A DNA stretch of 64,000 bases from Dehalococcoidia bacterium (GCA_965207225.1 CBDBLV010000005.1:1952001-2016000), one strand, 5' to 3'. Positions 8,450-51,483 are shown, counted from the first letter of the stretch. The notes: generated by a model not told the origin, from the sequence alone. Translations and numbers: made by a program.

Positions 8450-10114
8450 ATGAAGAAGCAGCACCTACAGCCCCTGACGCCGGCGGCCCTCTACGCCAGG
8501 GTGTCCAGCGACCGCCAAGACGTGGATCTGTCCGTGGCCGCACAGCTTAGGGCGCTCAAAGAGTACGCCAAGGCCAACGGCTACTCCGTGGCCAGGGAGT
8601 ACGTGGACGAGGCCGAGAGCGGCCGGGTCGCCGACCGGCCCCAGTTCCGGGAGATGATCGCAGAAGGCTCCAAGCCCCAGGCTCCTTTTGAGGTGATTTT
8701 GGTCTGGAAGTTTTCAAGGTTCACCCGCAAGCGGGAGCACGCCGTGGCCTTCAAGGCTCAGCTGCGGCGCAAGGGCATCCGCGTGGTGTCCATCACCGAG
8801 CAGGCCGAGGACAACGCCACCGGCAGGCTGCTTGAGGGCATCATCGAGAGCGTGGACGAATACTACAGCGAAAATTTGGCGCAGGAGGTCGTCCGGGGGA
8901 TGCGGGAGGCGGCTTCGAGAGGCTTCTTCCTGGGCTCCAAGGCCCCCTTCGGCTACCGGAAGATCAAGGTGCAGGACGGGGCGAAGGAGCGCCCCTCGCT
9001 GGAGGTTGACCCTGCCACGGCTCCTGTAGTGAAGGAGATATTCGAGAAGTCTCTGAGCGGCCACGGTCTGAAGGAGCTGTGCAAGGAACTGAACGACCGG
9101 GGCGTCACCAACCGGGGGAAGCGCTGGTACAAGGGCGGTCTCCACTACGTGCTGCGGAACGAGGCGTACACCGGAACAGCCGTGTGGGGGCTCAAAGGCA
9201 AGGGAGAGAAGGCCCAGGACCCGGTGAGGGTTGAGGGAGCGTGGCCCGCGCTGATTTCACGGGAGCTGTTCGAGGAGGTCCAGCAGGCGATGAGCGAGCG
9301 CGCCCCGAAGGTGCAGAGGCCCGCCAGGGTGGGAAGCCCGTATCTGTTGAGCGGGCTGCTGAAGTGTGGGGTGTGCGGCAGGCTCTACTCGGCCCAGGGA
9401 GCCAAGAGCGGCCAGTTCGCCTACTACATCTGCGGGACGCTGTTCCGGGAGGGAGCGGGGACGTGCAGCGCCCGCTACCTGAACGCTTCCAGGGTGGAGG
9501 AGTTCGTGGTGGAGAAGATCAGGGAGCGCATCCTCACCGAGGAGACCATCGTGGAGCTGGTGCAGCTTGTGGCGGAGGAGATCGACGCGATGGCCGGTGA
9601 GCTTGCAGGGAGGCTGGAGTCTGTGGAGGCGGAGCTGTCCGACGTGCAGAGGCGTCTGGGGAAGCTCTACGAAGCCATCGAGACGAGCGACCTGACGCTG
9701 GAGGTGCTGTCGCCCCGCATCATGTCCCTGCGGCACCGTGAGGAGCAGTTGGAGGCTGCCAGAGAGGACGCCGAGACCCAGCTTGAGCAGCGGAGAGTCG
9801 ATCTGCCCGACACCGAGGAGATCGCGCGGTACGTGGCGGACTTCCGGGAGTTCCTGAAGGAGGGAACGATACCGGAGCGCAAGGCCCTCATCCGCAACTT
9901 CGTTGAGGGCATCGAGGTGGTGGGAGACGAGGCGACGCTGACGTACACGGTCCCCATGCCGAGCGACGGCGTGACCCGCGAATCGGCGTCGGTTCTTGAT
10001 TTCGTCCAGTCCAGCCCACCATACTTGACGGTAGACAGAACCGGAGCGTGGAGAGCCACCTCCTCAGCGTCCCTTCCCCCTATCGGAGCATCCTCTGGCA
10101 TCGGGATGCTGTAG
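8450..10114 (+). CDS. Large serine recombinase type A, copy 1 (body 8450-10015; last 32 aa are read-through across J1)
   Basis: YARVSS catalytic motif, recombinase domain, LLSGLLKCGVCG/YYIC Zn ribbon, coiled coil. Confidence 0.95.
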   Translation: MKKQHLQPLTPAALYARVSSDRQDVDLSVAAQLRALKEYAKANGYSVAREYVDEAESGRVADRPQFREMIAEGSKPQAPFEVILVWKFSRFTRKREHAVAFKAQLRRKGIRVVSITEQAEDNATGRLLEGIIESVDEYYSENLAQEVVRGMREAASRGFFLGSKAPFGYRKIKVQDGAKERPSLEVDPATAPVVKEIFEKSLSGHGLKELCKELNDRGVTNRGKRWYKGGLHYVLRNEAYTGTAVWGLKGKGEKAQDPVRVEGAWPALISRELFEEVQQAMSERAPKVQRPARVGSPYLLSGLLKCGVCGRLYSAQGAKSGQFAYYICGTLFREGAGTCSARYLNASRVEEFVVEKIRERILTEETIVELVQLVAEEIDAMAGELAGRLESVEAELSDVQRRLGKLYEAIETSDLTLEVLSPRIMSLRHREEQLEAAREDAETQLEQRRVDLPDTEEIARYVADFREFLKEGTIPERKALIRNFVEGIEVVGDEATLTYTVPMPSDGVTRESASVLDFVQSSPPYLTVDRTGAWRATSSASLPPIGASSGIGML

Positions 10115-11601
10115 CGCAGCAGGGCGTTGCCCGGCATCACCACGATCTCCTTCACGAAGCTCTCGATGAAGGCCCTACGCTCGGTGAGCTCGCTCTCGTT
10201 GAGGAACACGCTCAGGTCCCGGGCGTAGGCCGTGATGGTCTCCACGTCGTCCAGCACCTCCCTGCGCTGCGAGAGCATCGCCCTGGCCTCGACCGCCGAT
10301 GCCTCCAGCTTCTCCTGCCGCTCCCTGTGGTCCCGGATGCGGGGCTTGAAGTCCTCGATGTCCAGGTCGGTGGTCTCCGCGAGGTCGTAGAGCCGTCCCA
10401 GCCTGCGCTTCACGTCCTCAAGCTCCGACTCGACGGTCTGAAGCTTCTGGCGCTGCTCCCTGGCGATGCCGTCCATCTCCTCGTCCACCAGCTTCACCAG
10501 TTCCCGGATGTTGGACTCGGTGAGCACGTTCTCCCTGATCTTCCCCACCACCATCTCCTCGAAGCGCCGTGCGTTGAGCCTGGGGGTTTCGCAGGCGTCC
10601 CTGCCACGCTTCATGATGGACTGGCAGACGTAGTAGGCGTACTTCCCGCTCTTGGCGTCCTGGCCGCTGAGTGCCCCGTCGCACGTCCGGCACCGGACCA
10701 TCCCGCTCAGCAGGTAGGTGCTCCCCACACGTCGGGGGTGCGTCTTCCTGGGAGCACGGGAGCGCATCCGCTTGTTCACCCTCTTGAACTGGGCCTTTGA
10801 GATGATGCCGGGGAACGCCTTGTCTACCCTTACCGGTTCATCCTTGCTCTTCCCGCCGACGCCCCAGAGGAGGGTTCCGGTGTAGGCTTCGTTGCGGAGG
10901 ATGATGTGGACGCCGTTCTTGGACCATAGCCTGCCCGTGGGGTTGGCGATGCCCTCGGCGTTGAGGGTCTGTGTGATGTCCAGGATGCCCCGGCCCGACT
11001 CGGCCATGGAGAAGATGCGCTGGACCACGGGAGCCGTGGCGGGATCGGGTTCCAAGGTGGGCCGCTTCTTGGCCCCGTCCTGCACCATGAGCTTGGCGTA
11101 GCCGTAGGGCACCCTGCTGGCGACCCAGAAGCCTCGTGATGCCGCCTCCCGCATACCCCGCCGAACCTCCTCGGCAAGATTTTCGCTGTAGAATTCGTCG
11201 ACGGACTCGATGATGGCCTCCATGAGCCTGCCGGTGGCGGAGTCGTCGGCGTGTTCGGTGATGGACACCACCCGGACGCCCTTGCGCCGCAGCATGGACT
11301 TGAAGGCGACGGCGTGCTCCCGCTTGCGGGTGAAGCGACTAAATTTCCAGACCAAAATCTCCGTGAACGGTGCCTCGGGCTTGCTGGCCTCGTCCAGCAT
11401 CTTGCGGAACTCCGGCCTGTCGGCGATCCGGCCGCTCTCGGCCTCGTCGATGTACTCCCTCGCCACGACGTAGCCGTTCTTGTCTGCGTAGTCACGCAAT
11501 GCCCGCAGTTGGGCGGCCACGGACAGGTCCACGTCCTGCCGGTCGCTGGACACCCTGGCGTAGAGGGCGACGGGAGTCGGGGTCTCTGTGCGGTTACTCA
11601 T
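9667..11601 (-). CDS. Large serine recombinase type B (body 11601-10018; remainder is read-through antisense to LSR A)
   Basis: YARVSS motif, LLSGMVRCRTC/YYVC Zn ribbon; clear paralogue of LSR A. Confidence 0.95.
   Translation of the reverse strand: MSNRTETPTPVALYARVSSDRQDVDLSVAAQLRALRDYADKNGYVVAREYIDEAESGRIADRPEFRKMLDEASKPEAPFTEILVWKFSRFTRKREHAVAFKSMLRRKGVRVVSITEHADDSATGRLMEAIIESVDEFYSENLAEEVRRGMREAASRGFWVASRVPYGYAKLMVQDGAKKRPTLEPDPATAPVVQRIFSMAESGRGILDITQTLNAEGIANPTGRLWSKNGVHIILRNEAYTGTLLWGVGGKSKDEPVRVDKAFPGIISKAQFKRVNKRMRSRAPRKTHPRRVGSTYLLSGMVRCRTCDGALSGQDAKSGKYAYYVCQSIMKRGRDACETPRLNARRFEEMVVGKIRENVLTESNIRELVKLVDEEMDGIAREQRQKLQTVESELEDVKRRLGRLYDLAETTDLDIEDFKPRIRDHRERQEKLEASAVEARAMLSQRREVLDDVETITAYARDLSVFLNESELTERRAFIESFVKEIVVMPGNALLRYSIPMPEDAPIGGRDAEEVALHAPVLSTVKYGGLDWTKSRTDADSRVTPSLGMGTVYVSVASSPTTSMPSTKLRMRALRSGIVPSFRNSRKSATYRAISSVSGRSTLRCSSWVSASSLAASNCSSRCRRDMMRGDSTSSVRSLVSMAS
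9990..10043. other. att junction J1 (A body arm | CC | B body arm)
   Basis: cggttcttgatttcgtccagtccagc CC accatacttgacggtagacagaaccg; dyad matches CGGTTCT, CGTC and AGT around CC 10016-10017. Confidence 0.85.
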
Positions 11602-11619
11602 GCTCGTCCTCCTCGTGGT

Positions 11620-11826
11620 TCATTCCTCTTCGTTCCTACGTGAGCGCCGTCGCTGCATCCGCTCCTCTATGCGCCACTCCCGCTCCTCCATGTAAAGGCG
11701 GATGGCCTCGCGGAGCAACTCACTCACGGTGCGCTGCTCATCTATCGCTACATCCCGTAGGTGTTGGGCCGTCCCCGGCGGCAGCGAGAAGGTGATGGTG
11801 TCGGTGTTCCTGGATTTGGTGGGCAT
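11620..11826 (-). CDS. CopG/ribbon-helix-helix regulator directly upstream of LSR B
   Basis: TITFSLP...L...A..E.RTVSELLREAIRLY RHH pattern; AAGGA RBS. Confidence 0.8.
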   Translation of the reverse strand: MPTKSRNTDTITFSLPPGTAQHLRDVAIDEQRTVSELLREAIRLYMEEREWRIEERMQRRRSRRNEEE

Positions 11827-12019
11827 AGGTCCTTTCGCCTGTCTATCGCACTGAGTCTTACTCTACACTATCGTCCAACTGGCATTCAACCTCCGACCCG
11901 AGGCGGGGGCGTCCGGGGGACCCCATCCAGGGTCTTCGAAAATCAAGGCGGTCGGCGCAGTCCAGGGGGTGTACACGAGTTTAGGTTTTGTCGGTGATGC
12001 ATCAAACGGGTCGTGGGCA

Positions 12020-12660
12020 AGCTGGAACTGGGGCAAATCGGCCTCCTATAGGGATAATCAGTGAACACTTTGATGAAAGTCCCAAGTTCGGTTGGAAATG
12101 ACAGAAAGGTGCTTGAGGTGGGGGTGCATGACGCGGTGCCATAGTGTCCCCCCATGACAAAACGGAGCAAAAGAGGCGCTTGAGGTGGGGGTGCGTGACG
12201 TCGACCGGATCGGCATATGGAGGCGGTTTTTCGTATCCCTGAAGACTATGGCGCATCCGTGATCCGGGGCATGCTGTGGTGACCGGTCAGCCCGTCGAGA
12301 GCGTCCAACAGGTCGAGAAGGTGATGGTCGGCGGTCCCGCCGGTTCTGCAACGAATTGTACTTTTGGGAGCTGTTGGGGGCTGACACGGTGAGTGAGGGG
12401 AATGCCCTTTTGTCCCCTACAGGAAGTCCTGGGAACGGCTCGGTGGGGAAGTTGGAACATGCTCCCGTGGCACGTTGCGGCTGAGTCGGGGTGCTCCGGG
12501 TCGGGCGGCTGTAGGCAGTGACCGTAGCTGGAGAGCTATGGTGGCGGGCGTGCATGACGCAGCGGCGAGAACGGCCTGACCGGTCGGTTCTGCAACGGAT
12601 TGTACTTCTGAGCGCGTAAGGGGAGATATGTGACCGGTCATGTATGCAAGTTGTCCCAGC
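12020..12660 (+). promoter_or_regulatory. Conserved non-coding cis region of B1
   Basis: TTGAGGTGGGGGTGCRTGACG at 12113 and 12180 (67 bp apart); GACCGGTC at 12281, 12578, 12632; 26-bp direct repeats at 12341 and 12585. Confidence 0.6.
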
Positions 12661-12710
12661 AAGGCTGCTGGGACAACCCCTATTGGAAGGGTTCGGAACG
12701 GAAACGGCGG

Positions 12711-14816
12711 TCATTCTGTCCTCTGATACGTCACGGAAAGCGGCCTTCTGTGGAGGGAATACGGCGGCGGGAGTATCCAGGCGTCACCCAGGATGCCATG
12801 CTCGGCAAGAGCCTCGACGTTGGAGGTGACGATGGGCACATCGTCCTCTGCGTCGGCGATGTTGAGGAAGGCCGTCTCGGAGGCGGAGGACTCGAAGACG
12901 AACAGCACATGGGGCAGGTGTCCCTTATGGTCTCGCTTTGCCCAACCGCTCATGAAGTAGCGGCGGTAGGACCTCAGGCGTTTGGGGATGCGCTTCGGCG
13001 TGGTGGCTCTCCGCTCGAACTCCAGCAGGAAGGGACGCCATCTGCCGTGGTACTCCAGGGTGAACGATGCGTCGGGGTGGATGACGTAGGTGGTCTCGTC
13101 GTAGCGGTAGCCGATGCTGGAGCGGTGTGTCGGCAGCAGGTCCCACATGTCGTAGTCCTGGGATTTGGCGACCTCGGCGGAGAGGGTCGAGACGAAGCCG
13201 ACCACACCGGCGTGGTGGCGCAGTTGGGACTTCAGGGCGCGCAGGGCCGTCCCTGCGTAGACCGAAGGGTTGGAGTGTGCAGGTTCGGGGCTCCATCTGT
13301 CGAGGGTGAGGCCCACGGCGGCCCGGTCACGGCGGGCCAGGTGCGTCAGCCCCTCGTCGGTGAGCATGAGCAGGGAGTCGTCCTCTCGCACGAGATCGTG
13401 CTCACGGAGGGAGCGGAGCACCTGGTTGACCCGGCGCAGGGTGACGCCGCCCATTAGTCCCCCGAGCTGCTCGCGGGTGCACAGGGGCCATGCGGAGAGC
13501 AGGTCCAGGGCGTCCTTCCCGGCGCCGGTAAGCTTTGTCGAGAGAGCAGACGTAAGCTGCTGAGTAGGCTCCGGCATGGCGGCCTTCACTCTGGAGGAGT
13601 AGAGGTCTTCGAGATCGGGCCTCGGGTTGTCGCGGAAGAACGAATGGGACGAGTCCAGCAGGCGCTCCATCCAAGCCAGGATTTCCGCCAGGGATGTGTC
13701 GGGGTCGATGAGCACGGGAGGGTCCTCCCCCAGGCCGCTGCCGCACTGCTGCCAGACAGCGCCGGTGTGGTCTCCGGCCAGAAGCGCTCCTTCGGTCGCA
13801 ACGAAGGTCCTGCGGTGCTCCGATGGGTCTCCCAATGAGCGAATGGCCCTGCGGGTGGCCTGGTCCGCGTGGGTCAGCACCAGGGTGGCGAAGGGCCTCT
13901 CCCGGCTGGGGAGACGCTCGACGCTTCTGAGGCGGTAGCGCAGGTTGGACGTGGGCAGGGCCGCCCCCTGGCGGACGATGCCGATGGAGCGGCCGCCCGA
14001 CAGGGTGATGAGCGTGTCGTAGGGGCCGCTGCGGTAGTGGTCGACACGCACGGTGTCTTTGTGGGGGTCTGCGTCGGCGATCATGGCGGCGACGCGGTGG
14101 AGGACGGCCACCGCGTCCATGCGCTCGGCCAGCAGCCGGAACCACTGCCTCGACACCGGATACTCGGTGAGGAAGTGGTCCGTGCCGTGCTCGATCCTCC
14201 CTCCGGCGACGATGCCCTGCTTTGTGGGGAAGTACCGTCGTTGGGGGCGGGAGCCGAGCACGCTCAGATGGTGTGGCACGGAGTCCACGAGGCCCCGCCT
14301 GGCGAGCTTGTCGAGGCGTTCTCGCAGGGTGGAGGCGGGAATGCGTCCGAACCGGGCCAACTCCTCCACGGTAGCCAGGGGTGTTGCGCACAGCAACCGC
14401 AGGGCGTCCTCAAGGGCTTCGGACAGGCGGATGGAGCCGGACGCCGAGCCATTCGCTCGCCGCCGGGTCGCCTCCCAGAGACGCGCCTCGACGATCAGAC
14501 CCTCCCTGACCGTCTCCACTTCCTTGACGGTTCGGCCCACGCTGTTCATGAGCGCGCGGGGAATGGCTCGTCCCGTGTGGCCTTGATTGAGGAAGCGCCA
14601 CAGGGTGTGGCGGGACACGCCGAGGTCCCTGGCCGCTCGGTCGCGTCCATGCCACGTAGCGTAGGTGCGTACGTAGTCCCGGACCGCCCCATCGAGGTCC
14701 GCTCCGGCCTGCGCTGCGCCGTTCGACGCTTGTGTTCGTGGATTCGTGACTGCCAATCCGATGCTCCAGCTTGCTGATGTCCCAACATCCCATCTTGAAC
14801 GGGAAATTGCTCGCAT
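12711..14816 (-). CDS. Replication-relaxation (Replic_Relax/MOBC-like) protein, divergent paralogue with extra N-terminal HTH
   Basis: HPDASF...FLLEFERRA...RL..Y motif; shares YP.SR.W..LL..RMDAVA with the 1203 protein; start uncertain. Confidence 0.75.
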   Translation of the reverse strand: MRAISRSRWDVGTSASWSIGLAVTNPRTQASNGAAQAGADLDGAVRDYVRTYATWHGRDRAARDLGVSRHTLWRFLNQGHTGRAIPRALMNSVGRTVKEVETVREGLIVEARLWEATRRRANGSASGSIRLSEALEDALRLLCATPLATVEELARFGRIPASTLRERLDKLARRGLVDSVPHHLSVLGSRPQRRYFPTKQGIVAGGRIEHGTDHFLTEYPVSRQWFRLLAERMDAVAVLHRVAAMIADADPHKDTVRVDHYRSGPYDTLITLSGGRSIGIVRQGAALPTSNLRYRLRSVERLPSRERPFATLVLTHADQATRRAIRSLGDPSEHRRTFVATEGALLAGDHTGAVWQQCGSGLGEDPPVLIDPDTSLAEILAWMERLLDSSHSFFRDNPRPDLEDLYSSRVKAAMPEPTQQLTSALSTKLTGAGKDALDLLSAWPLCTREQLGGLMGGVTLRRVNQVLRSLREHDLVREDDSLLMLTDEGLTHLARRDRAAVGLTLDRWSPEPAHSNPSVYAGTALRALKSQLRHHAGVVGFVSTLSAEVAKSQDYDMWDLLPTHRSSIGYRYDETTYVIHPDASFTLEYHGRWRPFLLEFERRATTPKRIPKRLRSYRRYFMSGWAKRDHKGHLPHVLFVFESSASETAFLNIADAEDDVPIVTSNVEALAEHGILGDAWILPPPYSLHRRPLSVTYQRTE

Positions 14817-15087
14817 GTAATGCCTTGCAAGCCATTGTTATGGAATGGGTTTTGTGGTAGCGGCCGAGGTCACGGAGGATGTTCACGCTCTCTCAAAGGG
14901 CGCGGGACTCCACTCCGACCGATCCGCCGACCTTGTCTTGGCTTTCCTTGATGGTTGCCGGACAGGGGGCCTCCAATTAAGTCTGGGAATGTTGAGAGGG
15001 CTTGCCAACGCCCTATAACGGGTGTCATGCGCGTCACCTCTAGGCCACCGGATTCCGGTGCCTGCACGAAGTGGTTGAGAAAGCGAC

Positions 15088-15300
15088 TCATCCGCTAGCC
15101 TCCTCTTCTAGCGGTGCCTCTGACGATGCCGAGACGGCTTGGGTGGCTTCCCGTCGTAGGTGGGCGCGGACGATCATCCTGGCCAGGATTCGCAGCCCGC
15201 ATCGCAGTTGCTCCTGCTGCCCAGCCGTGTACGCCACCGCCGATCCGTTCGCGGACGTGGCGGCGCACTCTGACGGTCTCTTTCTATCGGCCCTACTCAT
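15088..15300 (-). CDS. Small hypothetical protein
   Basis: 70-aa ORF with AGGAG RBS, basic helix GLRILARMIVRAHLRR, upstream of the relaxase on the same strand. Confidence 0.55.
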   Translation of the reverse strand: MSRADRKRPSECAATSANGSAVAYTAGQQEQLRCGLRILARMIVRAHLRREATQAVSASSEAPLEEEASG

Positions 15301-15734
15301 CCCGCTCCTCCGTTGTCGGTCTCGGCGGGATTGCAGATTGGCCTCTCCGCCGTCAATGCCGGATATCCGGCGTCCTGAGACCAGTCTGAGGGCCTGAGAG
15401 AGCGAGCGTTATCCCTCGGAGGGGACTACATCGATGTAGTGGGCCTTGCAAGCCCCTTGATGTATCAGCCCCGTGATGGGCCACACGCCTGTGGAGGCCT
15501 ACGTGATGTCAGTGGGCCTTTCACAGGGGAAGTAAACTCGTGCAAGTTGCAGATTCATGCTGGCTCAAAGCTGGAATCGGAAGGGCACGTCTCTCTACCG
15601 GACCAAGACAGCGAACATTTTGTGTCAGCGGCCGGTTGCGAACGGATTCGCAAACCTACCGTAACGGAAACGACGGAGCTTACAGGCGGGGAAATCGGTA
15701 ACCCCAATGCGATCGTGCTAGTCGCGCGGCTGGC

Positions 15735-15976
15735 TCATGTCCTCTTCCAGCGATACCGCAGAGTGTACCCAGGAACACAATCTACTACTAAGAGGCCTCT
15801 CTTCTTGAGAAACTGCTGGGCGTTCTGAACGTCATGCTTCCAGTTCCCCTGACACCATTGAGGTACGCGGGCGTATATACTAGGGGGTATAGATCCTCCG
15901 TTAACAAGCCGTCCTTATGCCTAGTCAGGCTTAGGACATCCAGAACCGCTTTGCGGAATGCCTCGTTCCTTGTCAT
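15735..15976 (-). pseudogene. Frameshifted small winged-helix-like protein (~79 aa)
   Basis: Removing one TA from TATATA at 15874-15879 joins MTRNEAFRKAVLDVL...DLYPLVY to ARVPQWCQGNWKHDVQNAQQFLKKRGLL...*. Confidence 0.5.
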
Positions 15977-16074
15977 GTCACCCCCCAAGCCGGTAGCGGC
16001 GATTGATCCGCCTCGCCATTCGAACAGTGTAAGTGATGCAACTGAGATCGGCTATGACCCCTTGCTTCATGCGT

Positions 16075-16587
16075 CTAGCTGTGCTGGTGTGGACACTTGG
16101 TGTAACCTGGTACCGAGTAGACTCCCGCTGGAATGCTGATCTGCTTGCCGACATTGATGTATGGATTGCTCCGCATGGCTTTTTCATCGTTGATGACGAA
16201 GTAGCCATTGGTGTCAAAGAACACCGCCGGGAAACTATCAGGCTTCTGGTACGGTATGCCAGTTTTCGAGAAGTACCCTTTCGCGCAGTTGAGGCCATGT
16301 TCCCTCAAGAGTCGAGGTCCGATTCGTTGGTGAGTGCGTCCCTGTGATTGAGGACCATGAACCGCATTCTCAGGCGTGTTGCGTAAAGTTGGACTATCCT
16401 CCCTAGGTGGCGTAGTGCCCGAGTGTCGCGATTGGTCCAATCCCAACACGATCCTCAGGACGCGGTTCGGAGTACCAGGAGAAAAGAGAGCCAATCCTTC
16501 TTCGGCAGCTCGCTTGGCCAATATCTGTTCAACCTCTCCATCTACTTGGATCGAGATCTCCACTTGCAACCTCCTTGGCATAGGCAT
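16075..16587 (-). CDS. Hypothetical protein with RHH-like N-terminus
   Basis: ISIQVDGEV..IL...TPNRVLRIVLGL, linker, compact C-terminal domain; start uncertain (16587 or 16650). Confidence 0.6.
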   Translation of the reverse strand: MPMPRRLQVEISIQVDGEVEQILAKRAAEEGLALFSPGTPNRVLRIVLGLDQSRHSGTTPPREDSPTLRNTPENAVHGPQSQGRTHQRIGPRLLREHGLNCAKGYFSKTGIPYQKPDSFPAVFFDTNGYFVINDEKAMRSNPYINVGKQISIPAGVYSVPGYTKCPHQHS

Positions 16588-16753
16588 GGTTTTACCATAC
16601 CATGCTGTGGGCCAACGAGTCAAGCTCCGCGCCGTTGGTTCACTTAGCACTGGGTTGATCCTAAGCGGTGCCGGGCGATCGGTGAGTCTGTCATCTTCCG
16701 TCGGTGGCGGGATCGAGGAGAGAGGGAACCCTGCTAGGCTGTGAACAGGTGTA

Positions 16754-16787
16754 TTGACTATGTTTCCGTGTTTTCCATATTATGGAA
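16754..16787 (+). promoter_or_regulatory. Sigma70-like promoter with overlapping palindromic operator for the TA operon
   Basis: TTGACT-N18-TATTAT; dyad TTCCATATTATGGAA at 16773-16787. Confidence 0.6.
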
Positions 16788-16816
16788 CCGAGTAGCCATC
16801 TAGGGGAGGGCCAGCG

Positions 16817-17119
16817 ATGACCACCAAGAAGAAGAGACTCACCCTTGACTTGGACCCCACCTTTCAGCGGCGGCTGAAAGCCATCTCCGCGCTCAAGGGC
16901 GTCAGCATGCGGGGGTACTGCCAAGCCGCCATCGATCGGGAATTGACAAGGGACGAAGCCAACGGCCTAGGCGATCTGTTGGTTGACAAGCCGGACCACG
17001 AGATGTTCGCAGAGCTCCAGCAGGAGATATTCGGGGACAAGACACTACCTGGGAACTCAGCCGACCTGATAAGAGAGGCCCGCGAGATTAGAGAGGCCGA
17101 GATGGAGCGATGGGCATGA
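16817..17119 (+). CDS. Putative antitoxin (RHH-like)
   Basis: KRLTLDL...RRLK..SA..G.SM; ATGA overlap with PIN gene. Confidence 0.75.
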   Translation: MTTKKKRLTLDLDPTFQRRLKAISALKGVSMRGYCQAAIDRELTRDEANGLGDLLVDKPDHEMFAELQQEIFGDKTLPGNSADLIREAREIREAEMERWA

Positions 17120-17580
17120 GCGGGCTTGTCGTCGTCGATGCGAGCTTGGCTGTCAAGTGGTTGGTGAGGGAGGAGCACACCGACCAGGCTCTGGCGATTC
17201 TCCGGGCGTGGCATGACGATGAGGTAACCCTGGCCGCTCCTTACCTGCTAGCTTTCGAGGTCGCCAACTCTCTCCATCGTAAAGTGGTTCGGGGCCAGTT
17301 GAGTGTCGGAGACAGCACCCGAATGATCCAACGACTGCTCAGCTCGAGGCTTGAGTTGCATCAGACTGACGGGCTTTACGCGAGAGCCCTAGAGTTGGCA
17401 AGCGAACTCCAGCAAGGGGCAGTCTATGACGCCCACTACTTGGCGCTTGCCGAGGAATTTGGCTGTGAGTTGTGGACTGCCGACCAGAGGTTCTACAAAG
17501 CAGCAAGTCAGGAAGTCAACATCGTCCGCTGCCTAGGAAATCCCGGCAATCCACCTACTGGCGAAGGCCGGGGACCGTAA
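17116..17580 (+). CDS. vapC: PIN-domain (VapC-like) toxin
   Basis: VVDASLAVKW...E, EVAN, YDAHYLALA, LWTAD motifs. Confidence 0.9.
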   Translation: MSGLVVVDASLAVKWLVREEHTDQALAILRAWHDDEVTLAAPYLLAFEVANSLHRKVVRGQLSVGDSTRMIQRLLSSRLELHQTDGLYARALELASELQQGAVYDAHYLALAEEFGCELWTADQRFYKAASQEVNIVRCLGNPGNPPTGEGRGP

Positions 17581-18353
17581 TGGCCATCAGAACGGAGATA
17601 CTACCGTCGCCATCGTCGTTGGCCTTCTTGAGGCGTTGCTTTCGGTTCGTCAGCGTGGAGTGGCCCCATGCTGAACGCGAGCGGTTGCCTGATGAGGGCT
17701 TCGAACAGCGGTTCCGCGAAAGTTGCGTCCAGAATCTGGATGGATGGATTATCTCGGAGCAGCGCGAATTCCACCTTGGGGCAGGGCTAATTACCGCGTC
17801 AGGCGTATCTCATGAGATAGACATCGTGGCCCGGTGGTCAAACGCAACCACTATATTGGAGGCAAAGAATCTCGGCGGTATGCCTGGCAAGAACGACATC
17901 ATTGTCTTCTTCGCCAAGATCATTGATTATCTGCTTGCAAACCCTGAGCTAGCTCTGTACGACCTTTGTTTAGCATTCATGTCTAGGAATTCGTTCGAAT
18001 CAAGTGCACTGGCCACCTGTTTAGGTCTCGGAATACATCCGGTCTCATCGGACATACGCCCACTTCCAGTCCTAGTGGATAATGCGATTCGCATGGAATC
18101 GGAAATACGGAGTGGGTTGGCTGTGCCGAGTGAAACGCTTGAACGATTTGAGGATTTGTGCGCCTCGCTCAACAATTTAGGTTCCAGACTACACGAGGTC
18201 TGGCCTGACAATCGATTTGGTTATCTGTCTGAGGATAGCATTCTCGTTAAGGCAGTCACTCCGTTGCCCTCGCATGAATTGGCCAGCCAACTTCGGCAAG
18301 TCAACAGCGACTGTATCGAACTTATCAATACATTCAGGTCTGTATCCTCCTGA
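17580..18353 (+). CDS. Mrr-like PD-(D/E)xK restriction-endonuclease-fold protein
   Basis: GFE...SG.SHEIDIV...ILEAK...K.DI..F.AK..D signature. Confidence 0.75.
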   Translation: MAIRTEILPSPSSLAFLRRCFRFVSVEWPHAERERLPDEGFEQRFRESCVQNLDGWIISEQREFHLGAGLITASGVSHEIDIVARWSNATTILEAKNLGGMPGKNDIIVFFAKIIDYLLANPELALYDLCLAFMSRNSFESSALATCLGLGIHPVSSDIRPLPVLVDNAIRMESEIRSGLAVPSETLERFEDLCASLNNLGSRLHEVWPDNRFGYLSEDSILVKAVTPLPSHELASQLRQVNSDCIELINTFRSVSS

Positions 18354-18374
18354 GGTATAAAGGAGTATTTGACT

Positions 18375-19466
18375 ATGAATATAAGCAGCTACAACATCAC
18401 TGAAGTCGGATATCACTACATAGGCTTGCGTGTGCTTGATGGTATGGGAACCTCAGCCCAGCGCAGCCAGCAAGTGGAAGTCATATCCAGAAACGTCCGG
18501 AAATTTGTGAGCGACAGAGCTTTGCGTCTCATGCTGCCAGATCCCAGGGGAACATTCCTCACGGTAGGCCAAAAGATCTGTGAGGAACTGGTTCACTTCC
18601 GATTTGCCCTCTCGGAACGTGGCGGCCCTTACGAATTGACTACCACTGGCCGGGATGTTCTCGGTTTACTGAAAGAACAGCGGTACCTAGAGCTCCGTAA
18701 AGTGATGGCTTCTGTCCACTTAAGAACCTACGCCAATCTGCGTGCTATAGTACAGGCCCATCTTGATGGTGGAGCGATCTGGCAGCCCGTCGTGAGCTCC
18801 GTCCATGTCGACCAGCCGGGATATTTGCAGGGACTGCTTGAGCCTACTTTCGAGCGAGATGCGTCTGCCGCACTGGCTAAGGCCCTTGATCAGAACGCGT
18901 TGCCACCTCCCAAAAAGATAGAGGACATCTTACGTGCCAAAGTCATCACACATACGATGCCTGCGCAACGTATGAGGGTGGCCCTTTTCCGAGCCATCTG
19001 TGACCGCTTGGTTAGTCTCAGGCTGCTCAACAAAGCGCGCGCCGTCCGCCAGAAGTGCGAATTCGAAAAGACTTATTCGCCTTGTGTGGTGCAACATCCG
19101 ATGAAACCCTGGTATTCGCCTTTGCAAATACCGCTGAATAATGGCGAGGCGTACCGGATATTTGTGTCCGAACCAGAGGCAACCGATCCCAATTACCAAG
19201 ATGCCCTGTTGTCTGGGATTGACCAAGCTCTCTCTGAGATGTCTCCAATAGGAGGGTACTACGACATTCCAGACCTCCGTGACATTGTGTGCGAATACCT
19301 GATGATCCCGGAAGCCGCTTTTGACGACGGCCTGAATTGCTTGCTTGACCGACAGCCAGCAGTTTTGTCGGTGGGCTTACAGTACGACAAGATTACTGCT
19401 AGGCGGAGACCTCTCGTCCGAGGCCGTCAAAACGCTCAGCTGCACAACTTGATAAGGAGAATCTGA
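18375..19466 (+). CDS. Hypothetical protein with probable winged-helix domains
   Basis: EL...F.....YELTTTG wing pattern; C-terminal IPDLRD.VC..L.I....FD; TGATG coupling to the ATPase. Confidence 0.65.
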   Translation: MNISSYNITEVGYHYIGLRVLDGMGTSAQRSQQVEVISRNVRKFVSDRALRLMLPDPRGTFLTVGQKICEELVHFRFALSERGGPYELTTTGRDVLGLLKEQRYLELRKVMASVHLRTYANLRAIVQAHLDGGAIWQPVVSSVHVDQPGYLQGLLEPTFERDASAALAKALDQNALPPPKKIEDILRAKVITHTMPAQRMRVALFRAICDRLVSLRLLNKARAVRQKCEFEKTYSPCVVQHPMKPWYSPLQIPLNNGEAYRIFVSEPEATDPNYQDALLSGIDQALSEMSPIGGYYDIPDLRDIVCEYLMIPEAAFDDGLNCLLDRQPAVLSVGLQYDKITARRRPLVRGRQNAQLHNLIRRI

Positions 19467-20821
19467 TGCTCAATCTCCCCAGAAGACAAACTGCTCCGAT
19501 TCCGTCTCCATATGGACGGTTGGGACTCACCGACTTACCTTTCCCGTCTGAGCCGCTGTTGGACCCATATAGCAACGACCCTCGTCGTAATGGTTCCATC
19601 TACGCCCAATCTCCGGTGAAAGATGCCATCGAGAAATTCGACCAATTGCTTATCCGCCCCAATGACTTTCTGAACCGCGCGAAGATCGCGTCACTGTGGG
19701 CTGCTGGAGATAGCATAAGCGGTCGCGGAATGGGGAAGACCGCTCTGTTGCGATTCTTTCAGCAACGGATTAACTCGGATTGGGGCCTAACTCAGTTTGA
19801 GGGGCAGTTCTCAGCAGCGGTCATCTATGTGGCGTTTCCAGACCAGGTGGACCGCCGATGGATGGAGCAACTGGCGTGGGCTGCTCTTGTGGACACTTGC
19901 CAGAACGGGGTCCTAGATGTGGCAAGGGCTGCTCTACGCCGTGAATTCCTTACCGATGATCAAGTGATGTCTGTGATCGACGATAACGGAAACACTGACT
20001 GGGGCAGGCTGCTCAACGATGCTGTTCTCGCAGACAACGGCATACCTACCGGTGAGTTGGATCATAGTTTAGAGGCTCAATTGCTCAATGACGGAGTGGA
20101 GAGAGGACCAGCACGAGCTTTGGCAGCGGGCACATTTGAGGAGTTCCTACGCAACTTACGCAGAGACGGAAATCTTCGCCCTTACTACATCCCGCGCGAT
20201 ACAAAGGGTCTGGACTATTCCCGCGCGCTCTTCTTCAACGACATCGTACGTTATCTCCGTTCTGCTGGTTTTGCGGGAGGCTACCTGTTCGTAGACGACA
20301 TCGAGAACTTGACCGACCAGATGGCGCGTAGACATCGAGTCGAATTTGCCAAGGAGTTTGGTCTCTGCACGGTGCGCCCGGGGTACGCAAACACTGAGTA
20401 CGGGTTCTTCTCATGTGTGCTAACCACTCATCAGCAGTCCGTGGCGGGGATATCTCAAGCTTGGAGTGAAGCTGGTTTAGCAGCAATGGCTCGCCTAGAT
20501 CCAGGTGCGCCCACGTCAGTAGAACTCCCATTGCCGACGCCAGATCAAGCCAGGGCTATCATCATTGCACACTTGGACCACTTCCGCGTCAACGATGAAG
20601 ACAATGGGACCATAAGGCCCTTCACTGAAGACGGATTGCAAGCTCTGGTTGGGGTTAGCCAGCATCCCCGTATGCTGCTGGCTAACGGAGCACATATTGT
20701 AATGCAAGCCGTACAAGGCGACTCAACCGATATAGACGATACCTTGGTACAGGAGGCGTTGAGCGGTATGGCAACTTCCTCTGGCCCAGACTATACGGAA
20801 GGACTCGAGGGAGTTCTATGA
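19466..20821 (+). CDS. P-loop AAA+-type ATPase
   Basis: GRGMGKT Walker A, YLFVDDIEN Walker B, N-terminal Y..LGL...PF, C-terminal PFT..G...HPR. Confidence 0.8.
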   Translation: MLNLPRRQTAPIPSPYGRLGLTDLPFPSEPLLDPYSNDPRRNGSIYAQSPVKDAIEKFDQLLIRPNDFLNRAKIASLWAAGDSISGRGMGKTALLRFFQQRINSDWGLTQFEGQFSAAVIYVAFPDQVDRRWMEQLAWAALVDTCQNGVLDVARAALRREFLTDDQVMSVIDDNGNTDWGRLLNDAVLADNGIPTGELDHSLEAQLLNDGVERGPARALAAGTFEEFLRNLRRDGNLRPYYIPRDTKGLDYSRALFFNDIVRYLRSAGFAGGYLFVDDIENLTDQMARRHRVEFAKEFGLCTVRPGYANTEYGFFSCVLTTHQQSVAGISQAWSEAGLAAMARLDPGAPTSVELPLPTPDQARAIIIAHLDHFRVNDEDNGTIRPFTEDGLQALVGVSQHPRMLLANGAHIVMQAVQGDSTDIDDTLVQEALSGMATSSGPDYTEGLEGVL

Positions 20822-20959
20822 TTCCCTAGGCTCCCTATCCATTGTGAAGGAAACGTGGGAGTAACTGACAATCATCAAATAGCACAGCCACGAGAGCTTG
20901 GGGCGTTGAATCCAAGCTTGATTTCCTACAACATGGGTGGGGCGGCTAACTGGACGAGT

Positions 20960-21013
20960 TCACAATCCCATCCAAAGCTCGAAAACAGTTCTGCCTACCG
21001 TCAACTTAGGCCC
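20960..21013 (-). other. Detached 3' tail of LSR B gene (GPKLTVGRTVFELWMGL*)
   Basis: In frame with ...VLSTVKYG of LSR B when joined at the core; stop at 20960-20962. Confidence 0.8.
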
Positions 21014-21039
21014 ACCAGACTTGATAAAATCAAGAACCT
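20986..21039. other. att junction J2 (B tail arm | CC | A tail arm)
   Basis: cagttctgcctaccgtcaacttaggc CC accagacttgataaaatcaagaacct; left arm mirrors J1 right arm, right arm mirrors J1/J3 left arm. Confidence 0.85.
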
Positions 21040-21068
21040 TCAGCCTGTGCTTCAAGCTGGAGGTGTAA
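21012..21068 (+). other. Detached 3' tail of LSR A gene (PPDLIKSRTFSLCFKLEV*)
   Basis: In frame with ...VLDFVQSG/S of LSR A when joined at CC; TAA at 21066-21068. Confidence 0.8.
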
Positions 21069-21081
21069 GGACGGGCTCAGG

Positions 21082-23577: not shown

Positions 23578-24091
23578 ATTAGCAGCCTATCGTGGATTGA
23601 CTTGAAGCCTGTCGGGACAATACCGCAGGGAAAAATAACAAAGTACGTCACGTCGAGACTCTAATCATCAGGGGAGGTTGAGGGCGAGTTGGCTAGTAGG
23701 CTCCTGGGGACGGGCTTCGACGCTGAAACCTGCCAAGCTCTATCGTTTATGCCTTACGCTCTTCGCAAGCCTAGACCTGATTCTCATACGGAGAAGTTTC
23801 GTACTAAGAGCACTACAACGCATACAGCTAGTACACCACTAGACAAGTACGCAATCCAATCGTCGTCGGCGTGTAGCCAGCTCCACTGAAACCCAAGTGC
23901 CCTCTCGCAGTAGTGTAAGCACGCCTTCCAGGACCAGAGCAGTGATCGCGATGCCAAGCAAGCCGACGCACAGCCGTTCCAATGCGTCCATCAGCGTACA
24001 CCTTGTTCGCTCACGATGCCTCTATCCGTGATGAGAAAGCTAAATGGGTCGATGGCCTGACTTGGGTAACTCATTGATGGTGTGTTCGATG

Positions 24092-24598: not shown

Positions 24599-24610
24599 GA
24601 GTTAAGCCCC

Positions 24611-26934: not shown

Positions 26935-26961
26935 TCGACTTCGAATGAATGTCCAGCCACG

Positions 26962-36373: not shown

Positions 36374-36712
36374 ATGGACGTGGCAGACGCAAGGACGGCG
36401 GCAATGGCAAGGACGACGACCAAGCAATGGGATCCGGCGAAGCATCTGGAAACCGCAGAGGAGATGGCAGCCTACCTGAGCGCCGCCTTCGAAGAGGACG
36501 ACGTGCGGTTGATCCTGGCAACGCTGGGGGACATCGCCCGCGTCCGGAGGATGGCGGTGGTGGCGCAGGAGACGGGGCTGGGCAGGGAGAGCCTCTACAA
36601 GTCGCTGTCCGCCGACGGCAACCCGGAGTTCGTCACCATCTTGAAGGTGATGCGCGCCGTGGGACTCAGACTTCAGGTCGCAGTGGTGCCTGGAGCGAAC
36701 GACGCCGCCTGA
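36374..36712 (+). CDS. HI1420-like antidote protein, copy 2
   Basis: Same as 8052-8390 except the N-terminus. Confidence 0.85.
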   Translation: MDVADARTAAMARTTTKQWDPAKHLETAEEMAAYLSAAFEEDDVRLILATLGDIARVRRMAVVAQETGLGRESLYKSLSADGNPEFVTILKVMRAVGLRLQVAVVPGANDAA

Positions 36713-36771
36713 GAGCGTCGCAGTGACGGACGACACGACTGAGGGAACAGACGATTCCAGAGGAGGACGAC

Positions 36772-39700
36772 ATGAAGAAGCAGCACCTACAGCCCCTGAC
36801 GCCGGCGGCCCTCTACGCCAGGGTGTCCAGCGACCGCCAAGACGTGGATCTGTCCGTGGCCGCACAGCTTAGGGCGCTCAAAGAGTACGCCAAGGCCAAC
36901 GGCTACTCCGTGGCCAGGGAGTACGTGGACGAGGCCGAGAGCGGCCGGGTCGCCGACCGGCCCCAGTTCCGGGAGATGATCGCAGAAGGCTCCAAGCCCC
37001 AGGCTCCTTTTGAGGTGATTTTGGTCTGGAAGTTTTCAAGGTTCACCCGCAAGCGGGAGCACGCCGTGGCCTTCAAGGCTCAGCTGCGGCGCAAGGGCAT
37101 CCGCGTGGTGTCCATCACCGAGCAGGCCGAGGACAACGCCACCGGCAGGCTGCTTGAGGGCATCATCGAGAGCGTGGACGAATACTACAGCGAAAATTTG
37201 GCGCAGGAGGTCGTCCGGGGGATGCGGGAGGCGGCTTCGAGAGGCTTCTTCCTGGGCTCCAAGGCCCCCTTCGGCTACCGGAAGATCAAGGTGCAGGACG
37301 GGGCGAAGGAGCGCCCCTCGCTGGAGGTTGACCCTGCCACGGCTCCTGTAGTGAAGGAGATATTCGAGAAGTCTCTGAGCGGCCACGGTCTGAAGGAGCT
37401 GTGCAAGGAACTGAACGACCGGGGCGTCACCAACCGGGGGAAGCGCTGGTACAAGGGCGGTCTCCACTACGTGCTGCGGAACGAGGCGTACACCGGAACA
37501 GCCGTGTGGGGGCTCAAAGGCAAGGGAGAGAAGGCCCAGGACCCGGTGAGGGTTGAGGGAGCGTGGCCCGCGCTGATTTCACGGGAGCTGTTCGAGGAGG
37601 TCCAGCAGGCGATGAGCGAGCGCGCCCCGAAGGTGCAGAGGCCCGCCAGGGTGGGAAGCCCGTATCTGTTGAGCGGGCTGCTGAAGTGTGGGGTGTGCGG
37701 CAGGCTCTACTCGGCCCAGGGAGCCAAGAGCGGCCAGTTCGCCTACTACATCTGCGGGACGCTGTTCCGGGAGGGAGCGGGGACGTGCAGCGCCCGCTAC
37801 CTGAACGCTTCCAGGGTGGAGGAGTTCGTGGTGGAGAAGATCAGGGAGCGCATCCTCACCGAGGAGACCATCGTGGAGCTGGTGCAGCTTGTGGCGGAGG
37901 AGATCGACGCGATGGCCGGTGAGCTTGCAGGGAGGCTGGAGTCTGTGGAGGCGGAGCTGTCCGACGTGCAGAGGCGTCTGGGGAAGCTCTACGAAGCCAT
38001 CGAGACGAGCGACCTGACGCTGGAGGTGCTGTCGCCCCGCATCATGTCCCTGCGGCACCGTGAGGAGCAGTTGGAGGCTGCCAGAGAGGACGCCGAGACC
38101 CAGCTTGAGCAGCGGAGAGTCGATCTGCCCGACACCGAGGAGATCGCGCGGTACGTGGCGGACTTCCGGGAGTTCCTGAAGGAGGGAACGATACCGGAGC
38201 GCAAGGCCCTCATCCGCAACTTCGTTGAGGGCATCGAGGTGGTGGGAGACGAGGCGACGCTGACGTACACGGTGCCCATGCCCAGGGACGGGGTGACCAA
38301 GGAGTCGGCCTCGGTTCTTGATTTCGTCCAGTCCGGCCCAGTGAGTGAGACTGGACGCTGGATGAGAGTTGAATTAGTCGGAGAAGTAATCGCCGGGACC
38401 TTTGAGAGGGGAATCAGCCAATATCCGAACATAGGAGATACGGTTCATCTGGCAGTTGAGGAACACTTGCACCGAATCTACGATATCCGAGGCCAAGGAT
38501 ACGTTGTAATTGGCACTCTCGCCAGTGCCGAAAGCATTTCTGCGAAAGTTGCGCTTGATGAGCTGGTAACACGGCATTCCGCTATTCTCGGCTCAACTGG
38601 TTCCGGCAAGTCCACGACTGTAGCCAGCCTACTACGAGCAATTACGGCATTCGGTCCAGACAGCAACGCATATCCGAACGCCCGGATTCTAATGCTCGAT
38701 ATACATGGGGAATATTCGACTCCTCTCGCCGATGTATCTAAGGTATTCAGCGTTGAACCCCAGCACGGGGAGGAAAAGCTGTTCGTTCCCTACTGGGCAC
38801 TCGACACTGAGGACTTGCTAGACTTTCTGACCGGGAGGCTGGAAGGGAACAGAGAAACGGCATTTACCGACAAGATATTTGAATTGAAATCTGCATCGCA
38901 CTCCGCCCAATTGTTTCCTGGTGTTCAATCCGGCTCAATAACTGTTGACACGCCTTTACCATTCAGTTTGAAGCGACTGTGGCATGAACTTATTGACTTT
39001 GAGATCGCAACATTTGAGGGGAAAGATCGCGACGAGTCTACTCGGCAAGATCCTGGAGACCCTAATACGCTCACACCCCCGAGATATAAACCTCATGCCA
39101 TGGGTGCAACAGGTCCATTCCTAAACCAGCAAGCGTTCGGCATACAACGTCCTCTGAACCTCTTACGTTCCCGACTGCTTGATCGTCGCTATGACTTCTT
39201 GTTGCGCCCCGGGCCGTGGGAACCCGACCTTGATGGTACGGCTGAAAGGGATCTTGATTCACTACTGTCTGACTGGCTTGGAGGTGACAAGCCCATTACT
39301 ATTCTCGATCTGTCTGCAGTGCCTAGCAGCGTGCTTGAGCGTCTGATTGGATCAATTCTGAAGATCATTTATGAGGCTCTGTTTTGGAGTAGAGAGAAGA
39401 CAGAAGGTGGCATTCAGCGTCCTTTGCTTATTGTAATGGAGGAGGCTCATAGGTATCTCTCAGATATATCAGAAGGTACAGCGTCAGATATGGTTCAAAG
39501 GATCGTAAAGGAGGGAAGAAAGTACGGTGTAGGTGCAATGATAGTTAGCCAGCGACCCTCTGAAGTGAACGAGACCATACTTTCGCAATGTGGCACCTTT
39601 TTTGCGCTGCGCCTCTCAAATCCATCTGATCGCGATAGGGTCCGGGGGACACTGCCAGACGGTCTTGTCGGCCTCTTAGATGTGCTACCGATTCTCCGTA

Positions 39701-50979: not shown

Positions 50980-51363
50980 ATGCGCATTACACTGACGGGC
51001 GTCTTCGTAAGTGACCAGGACGAAGCTCTGAGGTTCTACACGGAGACCCTCGGCTTTGTGAAGAAGCATGACGTCCCTGTGGGGGAGTTCAAGTGGCTCA
51101 CCGTCGTCTCGCCCGATGACCTAGATGGGACCGAGCTTCTGCTCGAACCAAATGAAAACCCGGTAGCACAAGAATATCAGAAAGGGCTATTTGACCAAGG
51201 CATCCCAGCGGCGTCCTTTAGCGTTACGGACGTCCGCGCGGAGTATGAGAAACTGAAGTCGCTGGGCGTGGCTTTTACGATGGAGCCAACAGAATTGCCC
51301 AACGTCACCATTGCGGTCTTCGACGACACCTGCGGCAACCTGATCCAGATAATGCAGACGTAA
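50980..51363 (+). CDS. VOC/glyoxalase family protein
   Basis: V.DQ..AL.FYTE.LGF, WLTV, FDDTCGNLIQI. Confidence 0.92.
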   Translation: MRITLTGVFVSDQDEALRFYTETLGFVKKHDVPVGEFKWLTVVSPDDLDGTELLLEPNENPVAQEYQKGLFDQGIPAASFSVTDVRAEYEKLKSLGVAFTMEPTELPNVTIAVFDDTCGNLIQIMQT

Positions 51364-51400
51364 CTACGATCGACCAGAATACCCTGTTGGGACGCGGGTG

Positions 51401-51454
51401 CAGTCCAGCCTGTCCAGGCACTTGGTGGGCCTATTTTGACGGTAGACAGAACCG
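51401..51454 (-). other. att junction J4 (B-type tail arm | CC | target arm)
   Basis: Minus strand cggttctgtctaccgtcaaaataggc CC accaagtg...; shares TTGACGGTAGACAGAACCG with J1. Confidence 0.8.
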
Positions 51455-51483
51455 TCTTCGAATTGAGGCTGGGCAGTCTGTAA
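51427..51483 (+). other. Detached 3' tail of a B-type LSR (GPILTVDRTVFELRLGSL*)
   Basis: Same frame relative to the core as the B1 tail; homologous peptide with synonymous codon changes. Confidence 0.75.

Follow-up and report, generated by a model that had tools for sequence, protein, structure and literature searches.

The main finding obtained in this work was that the large serine recombinase (LSR) genes in a 64,000-nt stretch of a Dehalococcoidia bacterium genome (GCA_965207225.1; CBDBLV010000005.1, C5:1952001-2016000), hereafter the window, are split genes: the integrase body lacks a stop codon of its own, and a short in-frame tail carrying the stop is parked at the element's other end. 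The feature is genuine, and the reading as split genes is correct. With a probability of roughly 0.8, the window is part of a tandem array of integrative, plasmid-like elements of 11-20 kb, each with one LSR whose attachment site (attP) lies in the last ~20 codons of its own LSR gene. Four observations carry this reading, namely the anatomy of the elements, its recurrence in other genomes, the type-matched element ends and the peptide-level selection on one class of tails (B-type). An earlier sequence-only reading of this DNA had recognised the split gene, but had missed both the tRNA 3′ end as the target and the tandem accretion array.

As shown in Table 1, the window contains three LSR bodies, two of A type (A and C) and one of B type (B). 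As the sequence-only reading had stated, none of them stops where the homologous body ends, and the open frames run for 554 (A), 644 (B) and 1057 (C) amino acids (aa). Bodies A and B meet tail to tail at 10016. Body C is fused in frame to a HerA-like gene (36772-39945, plus strand, the 1057-aa frame), so that gene callers would report a false fusion protein. The C and A bodies are 99.6% identical over 521 aa, and B is ~59% identical to A. The A and B proteins, the two that were scanned, consist in Pfam of Resolvase, Recombinase and Zn_ribbon_recom, that is, of serine-recombinase domains only, with no tyrosine recombinase domain. The resolvase catalytic domain PF00239 was found in the LSRs with E values of 6e-33 to 9e-33, and PF07508 and PF13408 are present. 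In an alignment of 61 sequences, Y14, R16, S18, Q22, R62, R89 and R92, which include the catalytic Ser and Arg columns, are invariant, and so are four Cys. An AlphaFold2 model of a natural full-length homologue, 94% identical to B and bearing a B3-type tail, has long paired helices at 364-412 and 421-446 that match the inserted coiled coil. The window proteins therefore have the catalytic domain, the recombinase and zinc-ribbon domains and the coiled coil of serine integrases.

The junctions at which the bodies end share the core GGCC/CACCA. GCCCA occurs at 10014-10018, 21010-21014 and 38336-38340 and its reverse complement at 51426-51430, and the dyad is centred on the CC after 10016, 21012 and 38338. 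That the bodies run into a dyad centred on CC, as had been claimed for 10016 and 38338, is correct as regards the centres; at 38338, however, only the left half resembles an att site, the right half being the start of the HerA-like gene. The three tails of the window, which had been placed at 21012 (on both strands) and at 51427, are all in frame and end in stops, and the two tail frames at 21012 diverge from one point. Joining the ends in silico reproduced the predicted open frames, of 540 aa for the A or C body with the 21012 tail and of 545 aa for the B body with its own tail. The sites reconstituted in this way are attP-like inverted repeats, as had been proposed, symmetric at 19 (A) and 20 (B) of 27 positions, compared with 16 for J1 and 13 for J2 as they stand. 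In nine of nine elements (three arrays, contig C5) the half-sites at an element's own two ends are complementary at 18-20 of 27 positions, against 9-18 for cross-type pairs, which means that each element holds both halves of one site and agrees with the proposal of an att site inside the LSR frame with the tail parked at the opposite end. Most tails have their stop 17-19 codons beyond the core, 21 of 24 pattern matches are conserved-type tails, and the body/tail hybrids at array junctions of the host genome are in frame in 5/5 cases. Read in gene orientation, the shared ~8-9-bp core of the A type is inverted with respect to that of the B type. The crossover would lie at the CC, a placement based on junction comparison only. 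The dyads were also considered as transcription terminators, an idea rejected because they have no G+C-rich stems followed by T runs.

Table 1. Integrase bodies, tails, junctions and elements of the window, and sites of the array to which it belongs. Positions are counted from the first nucleotide of the window unless preceded by C5.
Feature	Position	Strand	Description
Right-hand 10 kb of A-type element 'A'	1..10016	+	Direct repeats with 27230-38338, 78-97% identity
A-type LSR body, 522 codons to putative crossover, without own stop	8450..10016	+	ORF (open reading frame) 8450-10114
J1 hybrid att site	9990..10043		A left half-site (body end) and B right half-site (reverse complement of B body end); putative crossover CC ends at 10016
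B-type element, 11.0 kb	10017..21012		LSR body at left end, tail at right end; own-end half-sites 20/27 complementary
B-type LSR body, 528 aa	10017..11601	-	ORF 11601-9667; converges on A body, continues antisense to A
B-type tail, 18 codons and stop, GGPKLTVGRTVFELWMGL*	20960..21016	-
J2 hybrid att site	20986..21039		Reverse complement of B tail and A-type tail; putative crossover ends at 21012
A-type element 'C', 17.3 kb	21013..38338		Tail at left end, LSR body at right end
A-type tail, 17 codons and stop, PDLIKSRTFSLCFKLEV*	21015..21068	+	Left end of element C, cognate to the 36772-38338 body
Third LSR body (C, A-type)	36772..38338	+	ORF 36772-39945
J3	38312..38365		A left half-site and flank; HerA-like gene begins at ~38362
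B-type tail GGPILTVDRTVFELRLGSL*	51424..51483	+	Core inverted relative to J1-J3; left end of second array
TTGAGGTGGGGGTGCATGACGCG-type motif	3293-3315, 12112-12134, 12179-12201, 31624-31646, 63773-63796, 63841-63863
Array site: tRNA-Met/B-type body	C5:1911999
Array site: B tail/B3-type body	C5:1925898
Array site: B3 tail/A tail	C5:1944389
Array site: A body/B body (J1)	C5:1962016
Array site: B tail/A tail (J2)	C5:1973012
Array site: A body/flank (J3)	C5:1990338

A tblastn census of the whole host genome (4.03 Mb, 5 contigs) revealed 33 LSR bodies of the present family. Five elements stand in tandem at a tRNA-Met gene and make up an array of 78 kb, the distal portion of which falls in the window. 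Their order from the tRNA-Met gene to J3 is tRNA-Met, B, B, A, B, A, flank, and each of the five has a body at one end and a tail at the other. At J1 an A body meets a B body, at J2 two tails stand back to back, and J3 is the distal end of the array. Element A enters the window from the left, its left end with its own tail lying ~7.6 kb before the window at the B3 tail/A tail site. Its genes encode Replic_Relax, HTH_17, a UvrD-type helicase, SIMPL and an antidote-like protein, followed by the LSR (Pfam, on the element C homologues), and the B-type element carries a Replic_Relax/winged helix-turn-helix protein at 12711-14816 together with unnamed cargo. The tail at 51427 belongs elsewhere. Its frame and stop stand; its core, however, is inverted with respect to the other three junctions, and a pairing with the third body was rejected because recombination between cores in opposite orientation at 38338 and 51427 would invert the DNA and not excise it. 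This tail instead forms the left end of another array, situated on the opposite strand, and pairs with a B-type body outside the window (C5:2030765-2032345, equivalent to window 78765-80345), which converges on another A-type body. The DNA downstream of the 51427 tail is that found after an intact gene at C5:379129. A further array with alternating A and B elements was noticed at C3:11521-106892 (~95 kb); the contig start seems to truncate it, and one of its junctions, near C3:41976, is degenerate.

The common core corresponds to the 3′ end of a tRNA, comprising the last acceptor-stem bases, A73 and CCA, with the dyad centre on the CC of tRNA positions 71-72. Seven of the 33 bodies in the host genome end exactly on the 3′ end of a tRNA gene and converge with it (Ile, Ala, Lys, Val, Gln, Val and Met). 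Fourteen form seven convergent A/B pairs like J1, five are contiguous and in frame with the tail of another element, and seven adjoin other sequence. The outer motif GGTTC lies 26 nt from the centre in the element half-sites versus 20 nt in the tRNA, a shift of the same direction and similar size as the 5-bp attP/attB shift given for the A118/LI enzymes (Listeria phage LI integrase) in the part of Rutherford et al. (2013; PMC3783163) on which we draw. The two types approach the tRNA differently, the A-type gene being co-directional with the tRNA and having its tail next to it, and the B-type body converging on it.

The same arrangement was found well beyond this genome. Of 41 genomes searched, the host's own among them, 32 have relatives of the LSR, a single genome yielding as many as 25 matches; the hosts are Dehalococcoidia and Chloroflexota, mostly metagenome-assembled genomes, and no integrase relative was found in viral contigs. 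The expectation that homologues would have tails too was borne out, since both tRNA/body and tRNA/tail junctions recur across genomes. At 6 of 11 loci from other genomes the LSR, down to 49% identity, ends on a tRNA-Ala or tRNA-Ile gene. The tRNA-abutting arrangement was checked in DNA down to this same identity and, judging from sequence, may reach far beyond Dehalococcoidia. Among 80 B-body loci elsewhere, 37 end on tRNA genes of nine kinds (Val, Lys, Met, Ile, Ala, Leu, Glu, Gln and Arg), 19 on a convergent LSR, one at a contig end and 23 on other sequence, ~8 of the latter being contiguous tails. A search with the A-tail pattern in 250 further genomes of the class gave 28 loci from other genomes, 25 of them true tails, of which 12 stand directly after a tRNA gene, 8 after a reversed B-type tail and 5 after something else. 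The tRNA junctions of each type alone indicate that both classes enter tRNA genes independently. An insertion of A-type elements only beside B-type tails had also been considered, since A tails of the host genome lie beside a B tail in 9/12 cases and beside a tRNA in 0/12, and was rejected on the strength of those 12 of 25 A tails. Annotated proteins tell of the same junctions: the 120 clusters closest to a full-length homologue of the B type include 34 that continue into an A body's reverse complement, at least 31 that enter antisense tRNA and ~9 with a true tail, which suggests that the annotated proteins are mostly chimeric read-throughs. For the 120 clusters closest to the A body, ~27 have a B-like tail in the same orientation and ~15 run into the reverse complement of a B body. 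It was also observed that many cluster representatives of 30-50% identity (P0249-P0363) end in antisense-tRNA-like peptides, for example ...TRTxNPxINSRMLHH.

J1 and J2 could have arisen in another way, by insertion of a B-type element into an intact A integrase gene at an A-A tandem junction, the tRNA-like end of the A gene serving as a pseudo-attB, so that newcomers would not simply have entered beside the tRNA and the integrases would target one another. The A body end and the 3′ end of tRNA-Val(gac) both contain TCCAGT-3 nt-GCCCACCA, the near identity of the A and C bodies is what would be expected of a tandem pair, and convergent A/B pairs recur, seven times here and at 16 of the 80 loci elsewhere. 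Nevertheless, insertion next to a tRNA yields the same junctions, the frequency with which A tails follow and B bodies end on tRNA genes means that neither type needs the other, and no intact A body with an A tail, the required target, was found anywhere; we consider this origin rather unlikely. It is highly improbable that the convergent A and B genes belong to one composite element as a fixed module of two recombinases comparable to CcrA/CcrB or DsiA/DsiB. The recurrence of the convergent pair would fit such a module, but each type is found alone at tRNA genes, the DNA from each body to its matching tail makes up an entire element that includes a Replic_Relax gene, half-sites match within elements and not across the pair, and both proteins are full-size LSRs with no small partner among the ORFs scanned.

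Since the host sequence is a repeat-rich metagenome-assembled genome with a contamination estimate of 8.3%, an assembly artefact was also weighed. In four runs of one sample, the summed contig depth was ~500-10000 over the integrase genes (8400-11668) versus 3-26 over unique cargo (14938-20541), a ratio of 50 to several hundred times, and contigs break at 21016/21017. The depth excess implies that the integrase family is very abundant in the community of that sample. On the other side, junctions of these types recur in many genomes that were assembled independently, several in a single contig, and make an artefact very hard to credit. Chance is excluded by the presence of the same architecture at 33 LSR genes here and in dozens of other genomes.

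The tail could be a selected peptide or only a half-site for DNA binding. In every tail the dyad fixes the first ~10 codons. Over the seven codons beyond it, the seven unique B tails gave a ratio of nonsynonymous to synonymous change (pN/pS) of 0.17, against 0.66 and 7.6 in the shifted frames, with no second-position change and a pS of 0.86. The 11 unique B3 tails gave 0.07 over five codons, against 0.79 and 1.54. The VFEL codons of the two B tails of the window differ only synonymously, as the sequence-only reading had noted. The selection on the tail peptide that it deduced from these codons thus holds for the B type (0.07-0.17), and constitutes direct evidence that the full-length B-type protein is produced and is of consequence. 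Some functional difference between the circle-encoded and the chromosomal enzyme is probable on these sequence data, whereas a genuine regulatory switch residing in the tail is a possibility that we regard with some doubt.

Therefore, we propose the following sequence of events. The attP would be an imperfect dyad of ~54 bp around GGCC/CACCA. By analogy with the LSR biology set out in the portion of PMC3783163 used here, two enzyme dimers would bind the ~26-bp half-sites of attP and the tRNA end, whose T-loop GGTTC is 6 bp closer to the centre, and strand exchange would take place at the CC (tRNA positions 71-72). Since CACCA is brought in by the element, the tRNA would remain intact. Integration would cut the body (~522-528 codons) from the tail of 17-19 codons, which would be left 11-20 kb away at the other end of the element, and the integrated body would then read into antisense tRNA, a neighbour's integrase or the flank. 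Arrays would grow most simply if newcomers inserted next to the tRNA and pushed older elements outward. Selection on the tail suggests that it would give the circle-encoded enzyme some property missing from the chromosomal form. We put forward, tentatively and as less than an even chance, a wider hypothesis in which these enzymes constitute an undescribed LSR clade with a generic tRNA T-arm/acceptor/CCA landing site and with the in-frame attP as a sensor of the integration state. The selected C-terminal peptide would be encoded solely by the excised circle or, by luck, through a neighbour in an array, the chromosomal copy would have an antisense-tRNA pseudo-tail, the two forms would differ in activity, stability or direction, and arrays would make tail-swapped chimeras.

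Several results weigh against the main reading of split genes and tRNA-targeted arrays, and part of them would be expected if the overlap were incidental, that is, if the ~520-aa body worked alone and the tail, devoid of protein function, were conserved only as a DNA-binding half-site, the ORF crossing attP merely because the site directly follows the last domain. The selection signal is weak in the A type, where 12 unique tails gave a pN/pS of 0.56, equal to that of one shifted frame (0.56), even though their alternating hydrophobic pattern and stop position are kept. The selection samples are small, of 7-12 unique sequences, and the sequences are related. All Pfam domains end by ~residue 358 and a conserved C-terminal beta-hairpin by ~residue 499. 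In the AlphaFold2 model (mean predicted local distance difference test, pLDDT, 82.7) the tail is predicted disordered, residues 527-546 scoring below 50, so nothing shows it packing on the enzyme. At least 31 of the 33 integrated bodies of the host genome are still open reading frames, and the C-termini of DsiB, a distant relative, are divergent according to the part of McMurdie et al. (2011; PMC3146451) drawn on here. Against an incidental overlap stand the low B and B3 ratios at saturated synonymous change (pS ~0.8) with shifted frames at 0.66-7.6, the near-constant distance from core to stop and the in-frame hybrids, and we judge it unlikely.

Other points on the same side concern excision and target choice. 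No excised circle or empty site was seen in the source data, which are assembled contigs from one sample and four runs; the contigs over 8400-22400 gave no joint of 10016 with 21012 in either sense, and because they stop at 21016/21017 they allow no verdict on excision. An A body contiguous with an A tail was found in 0/13 cases in the host genome. The exact pattern of A arm, core and A tail had no matches in the metagenome contigs, the A arm alone had 14 sites there and was followed by the A tail in 0/14, and no clear case of an A body with an A tail was present among 120 protein clusters (two are ambiguous). This absence is expected if the joined A gene exists only on the free circle; the 540-aa A-type protein is thus unobserved. 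Occupancy of the 49 tRNA genes of the host genome, 6/11 for those ending in CCACCA versus 1/38 for the others, is an enrichment that is partly circular, because the element itself supplies CACCA. Finally, the first 2.2 kb after J3 had no counterpart in 20 relatives by DNA search, and the original empty tRNA-Met site is therefore not reconstructable.

The sequence-only reading knew of no described serine-integrase system of this type, and here it was mistaken. McMurdie et al. (2011, BMC Genomics 12:287, PMC3146451) reported tandem islands at the Dehalococcoides transfer-messenger RNA (tmRNA) gene, ssrA, with a 540-residue serine recombinase, DsiB, and advanced the same hypothesis. In the passages of that paper on which we rely, DsiB always overlaps attL, its stop is reached only beyond the island, and it was proposed that it may work fully only once the element has circularised or where another island adjoins; the authors favoured a view of the incidental type for the portion of dsiB antisense to ssrA. 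The central idea was therefore already in print for a distant relative from the same class. Both systems have an LSR of ~540 aa at the island edge that converges on the end of a tRNA-like gene, and tandem arrays, and in both the ORF overlaps the att site with no stop inside the island. A 541-aa LSR that overlaps the tmRNA gene by 68 nt in the Dehalococcoides-like genome G025 reproduces the DsiB anatomy. The stretch G025:C2:140500-148000 (1456-1531 and 3222-5133) was seen to have the anatomy of an ssrA island, with a tRNA-Gly-like gene ~1.7 kb upstream of the integrase start.

There are also clear differences between the two systems. Identity between the G025 protein and the present family is 28% and does not extend past the first ~347 residues (E 2e-27), which places them in the same superfamily and in different clades. 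As described in the same passages, DsiB targets a single tmRNA gene, with a T-loop crossover and a 20-bp repeat, whereas the present elements use tRNA genes of at least nine amino-acid kinds, with a probable crossover at the acceptor/CCA boundary and a ~9-bp core. The DsiB module there includes a small serine recombinase (DsiA), ParB, Mom and a tRNA-like locus (PMC3146451). No DsiA-like small partner, ParB, Mom or tRNA-like locus was found in the 38 window ORFs scanned besides the two LSRs, a scan that left out some small ORFs; in place of DsiA, ParB and Mom the present elements carry Replic_Relax, HTH_17 and a UvrD-type helicase. A conserved displaced tail is neither identified nor tested in the parts of the 2011 paper drawn on, and evidence of tail selection is absent from it, whereas the present tail lies at the far end of the element and, in the B type, is subject to purifying selection. 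The present elements also show two orientations of the core and hybrid genes that stay in frame. Our literature search, in full text but with few subscription journals, found no description of serine integrases that target ordinary tRNA genes and returned DsiB as the sole case of an att site inside a serine integrase gene. As of 2014, serine integrases were not known to target tRNA genes, according to the section of the Islander paper concerned (PMC4383910). Apparently new are the use of tRNA genes as targets, a tail under selection, the existence of two core orientations and the scale.

The A118/LI serine integrases are alike in domain order, and their short pseudo-palindromic sites of ~25-bp half-sites, with the outer motif nearer the centre in attB, resemble the putative sites of the present elements, as far as the cited part of Rutherford et al. 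(2013, PMC3783163) goes. Parallels exist among tyrosine recombinases. In archaeal integrases of the SSV1 type, attP reportedly lies inside int, and integration into a tRNA gene splits the gene to the two ends of the element; these are tyrosine recombinases split near the middle or in the N-terminal part, whereas the present enzymes are serine recombinases that lose a short C-terminal tail. In the integration-dependent immunity of mycobacteriophages, attP is said to lie inside the repressor gene, and recombination removes a C-terminal peptide, so that the protein behaves differently in the free and the integrated state; there, reportedly, a repressor is cut by a tyrosine integrase and the removed peptide is a degradation tag, and no such role is shown here. 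To our knowledge, in the known canonical large serine integrases of phages attP is located outside the int ORF, and the known natural targets of serine integrases are idiosyncratic protein-coding or intergenic sites. The myxophage Mx8 integrase IntP, which Tojo et al. reportedly described in 1996, has attP in the 3′ part of int, so that integration, with a tRNA gene as the target, alters the C-terminus; it is a tyrosine recombinase whose replaced segment is much longer than the present tail.

These elements may also be of practical value. For inserting large DNA in one step, serine integrases are the principal tools. If a clade indeed recognises the conserved 3′ end of many tRNA genes, landing sites would already be present in almost any bacterium, and if the C-terminus differs between the free and the integrated state, directionality control would be built in. 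As genome biology the case is extreme: the 4-Mb genome has 33 integrase genes and arrays that reach 78 kb here and ~95 kb on C3, and at least half of the suitable tRNA genes of the host are occupied.

Small conserved genes near the integrase, namely that of an HTH_17 protein at 32213-32662 and ORFs at 36374-36712 and 12058-12714, are candidates for a directionality factor. Element C carries, besides its core genes, a leucine-rich-repeat protein of 831 aa (21082-23577, plus strand), a group of three genes at 24092-26934 (minus strand) and an IS21 insertion. The DNA repeats in the N-terminal part of the leucine-rich-repeat gene (21173-21600 and 23221-23436) have a 24/48-nt spacing, and two copies are identical over 188 nt. 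The three genes encode a Vsr mismatch endonuclease, a DUF4928 protein and a C5 cytosine methylase, and look like a restriction-modification module. The IS21-family pair, an IstB-like ATPase and a transposase with rve and Mu-transposase C-terminal domains, lies at 29202-31237 (minus strand) and is missing from the matching place in element A, which explains why the offset of the direct repeats shifts from 26081 to ~28325. In the 13 kb after J3, at 38362-47202 (plus strand), a HerA-like ATPase, a DUF1156 protein with a large methyltransferase-like protein, and a HEPN(Swt1)-DUF499 protein form a cluster that looks like a defence system, situated between two oppositely oriented arrays. A motif of ~23 nt, TTGAGGTGGGGGTGCATGACGCG, and its variants occur once or twice per element on either strand and may be an origin or operator. 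Just inside the element that starts at 51427, a PIN-domain protein with an AF2212-like partner, resembling a toxin-antitoxin pair, is encoded at 51598-52304 (minus strand). Further on, at 54420-59225 (plus strand), lies the gene of a 1601-aa protein with at least five Calx-beta domains, to which the repeat families at 56935-59187 belong.

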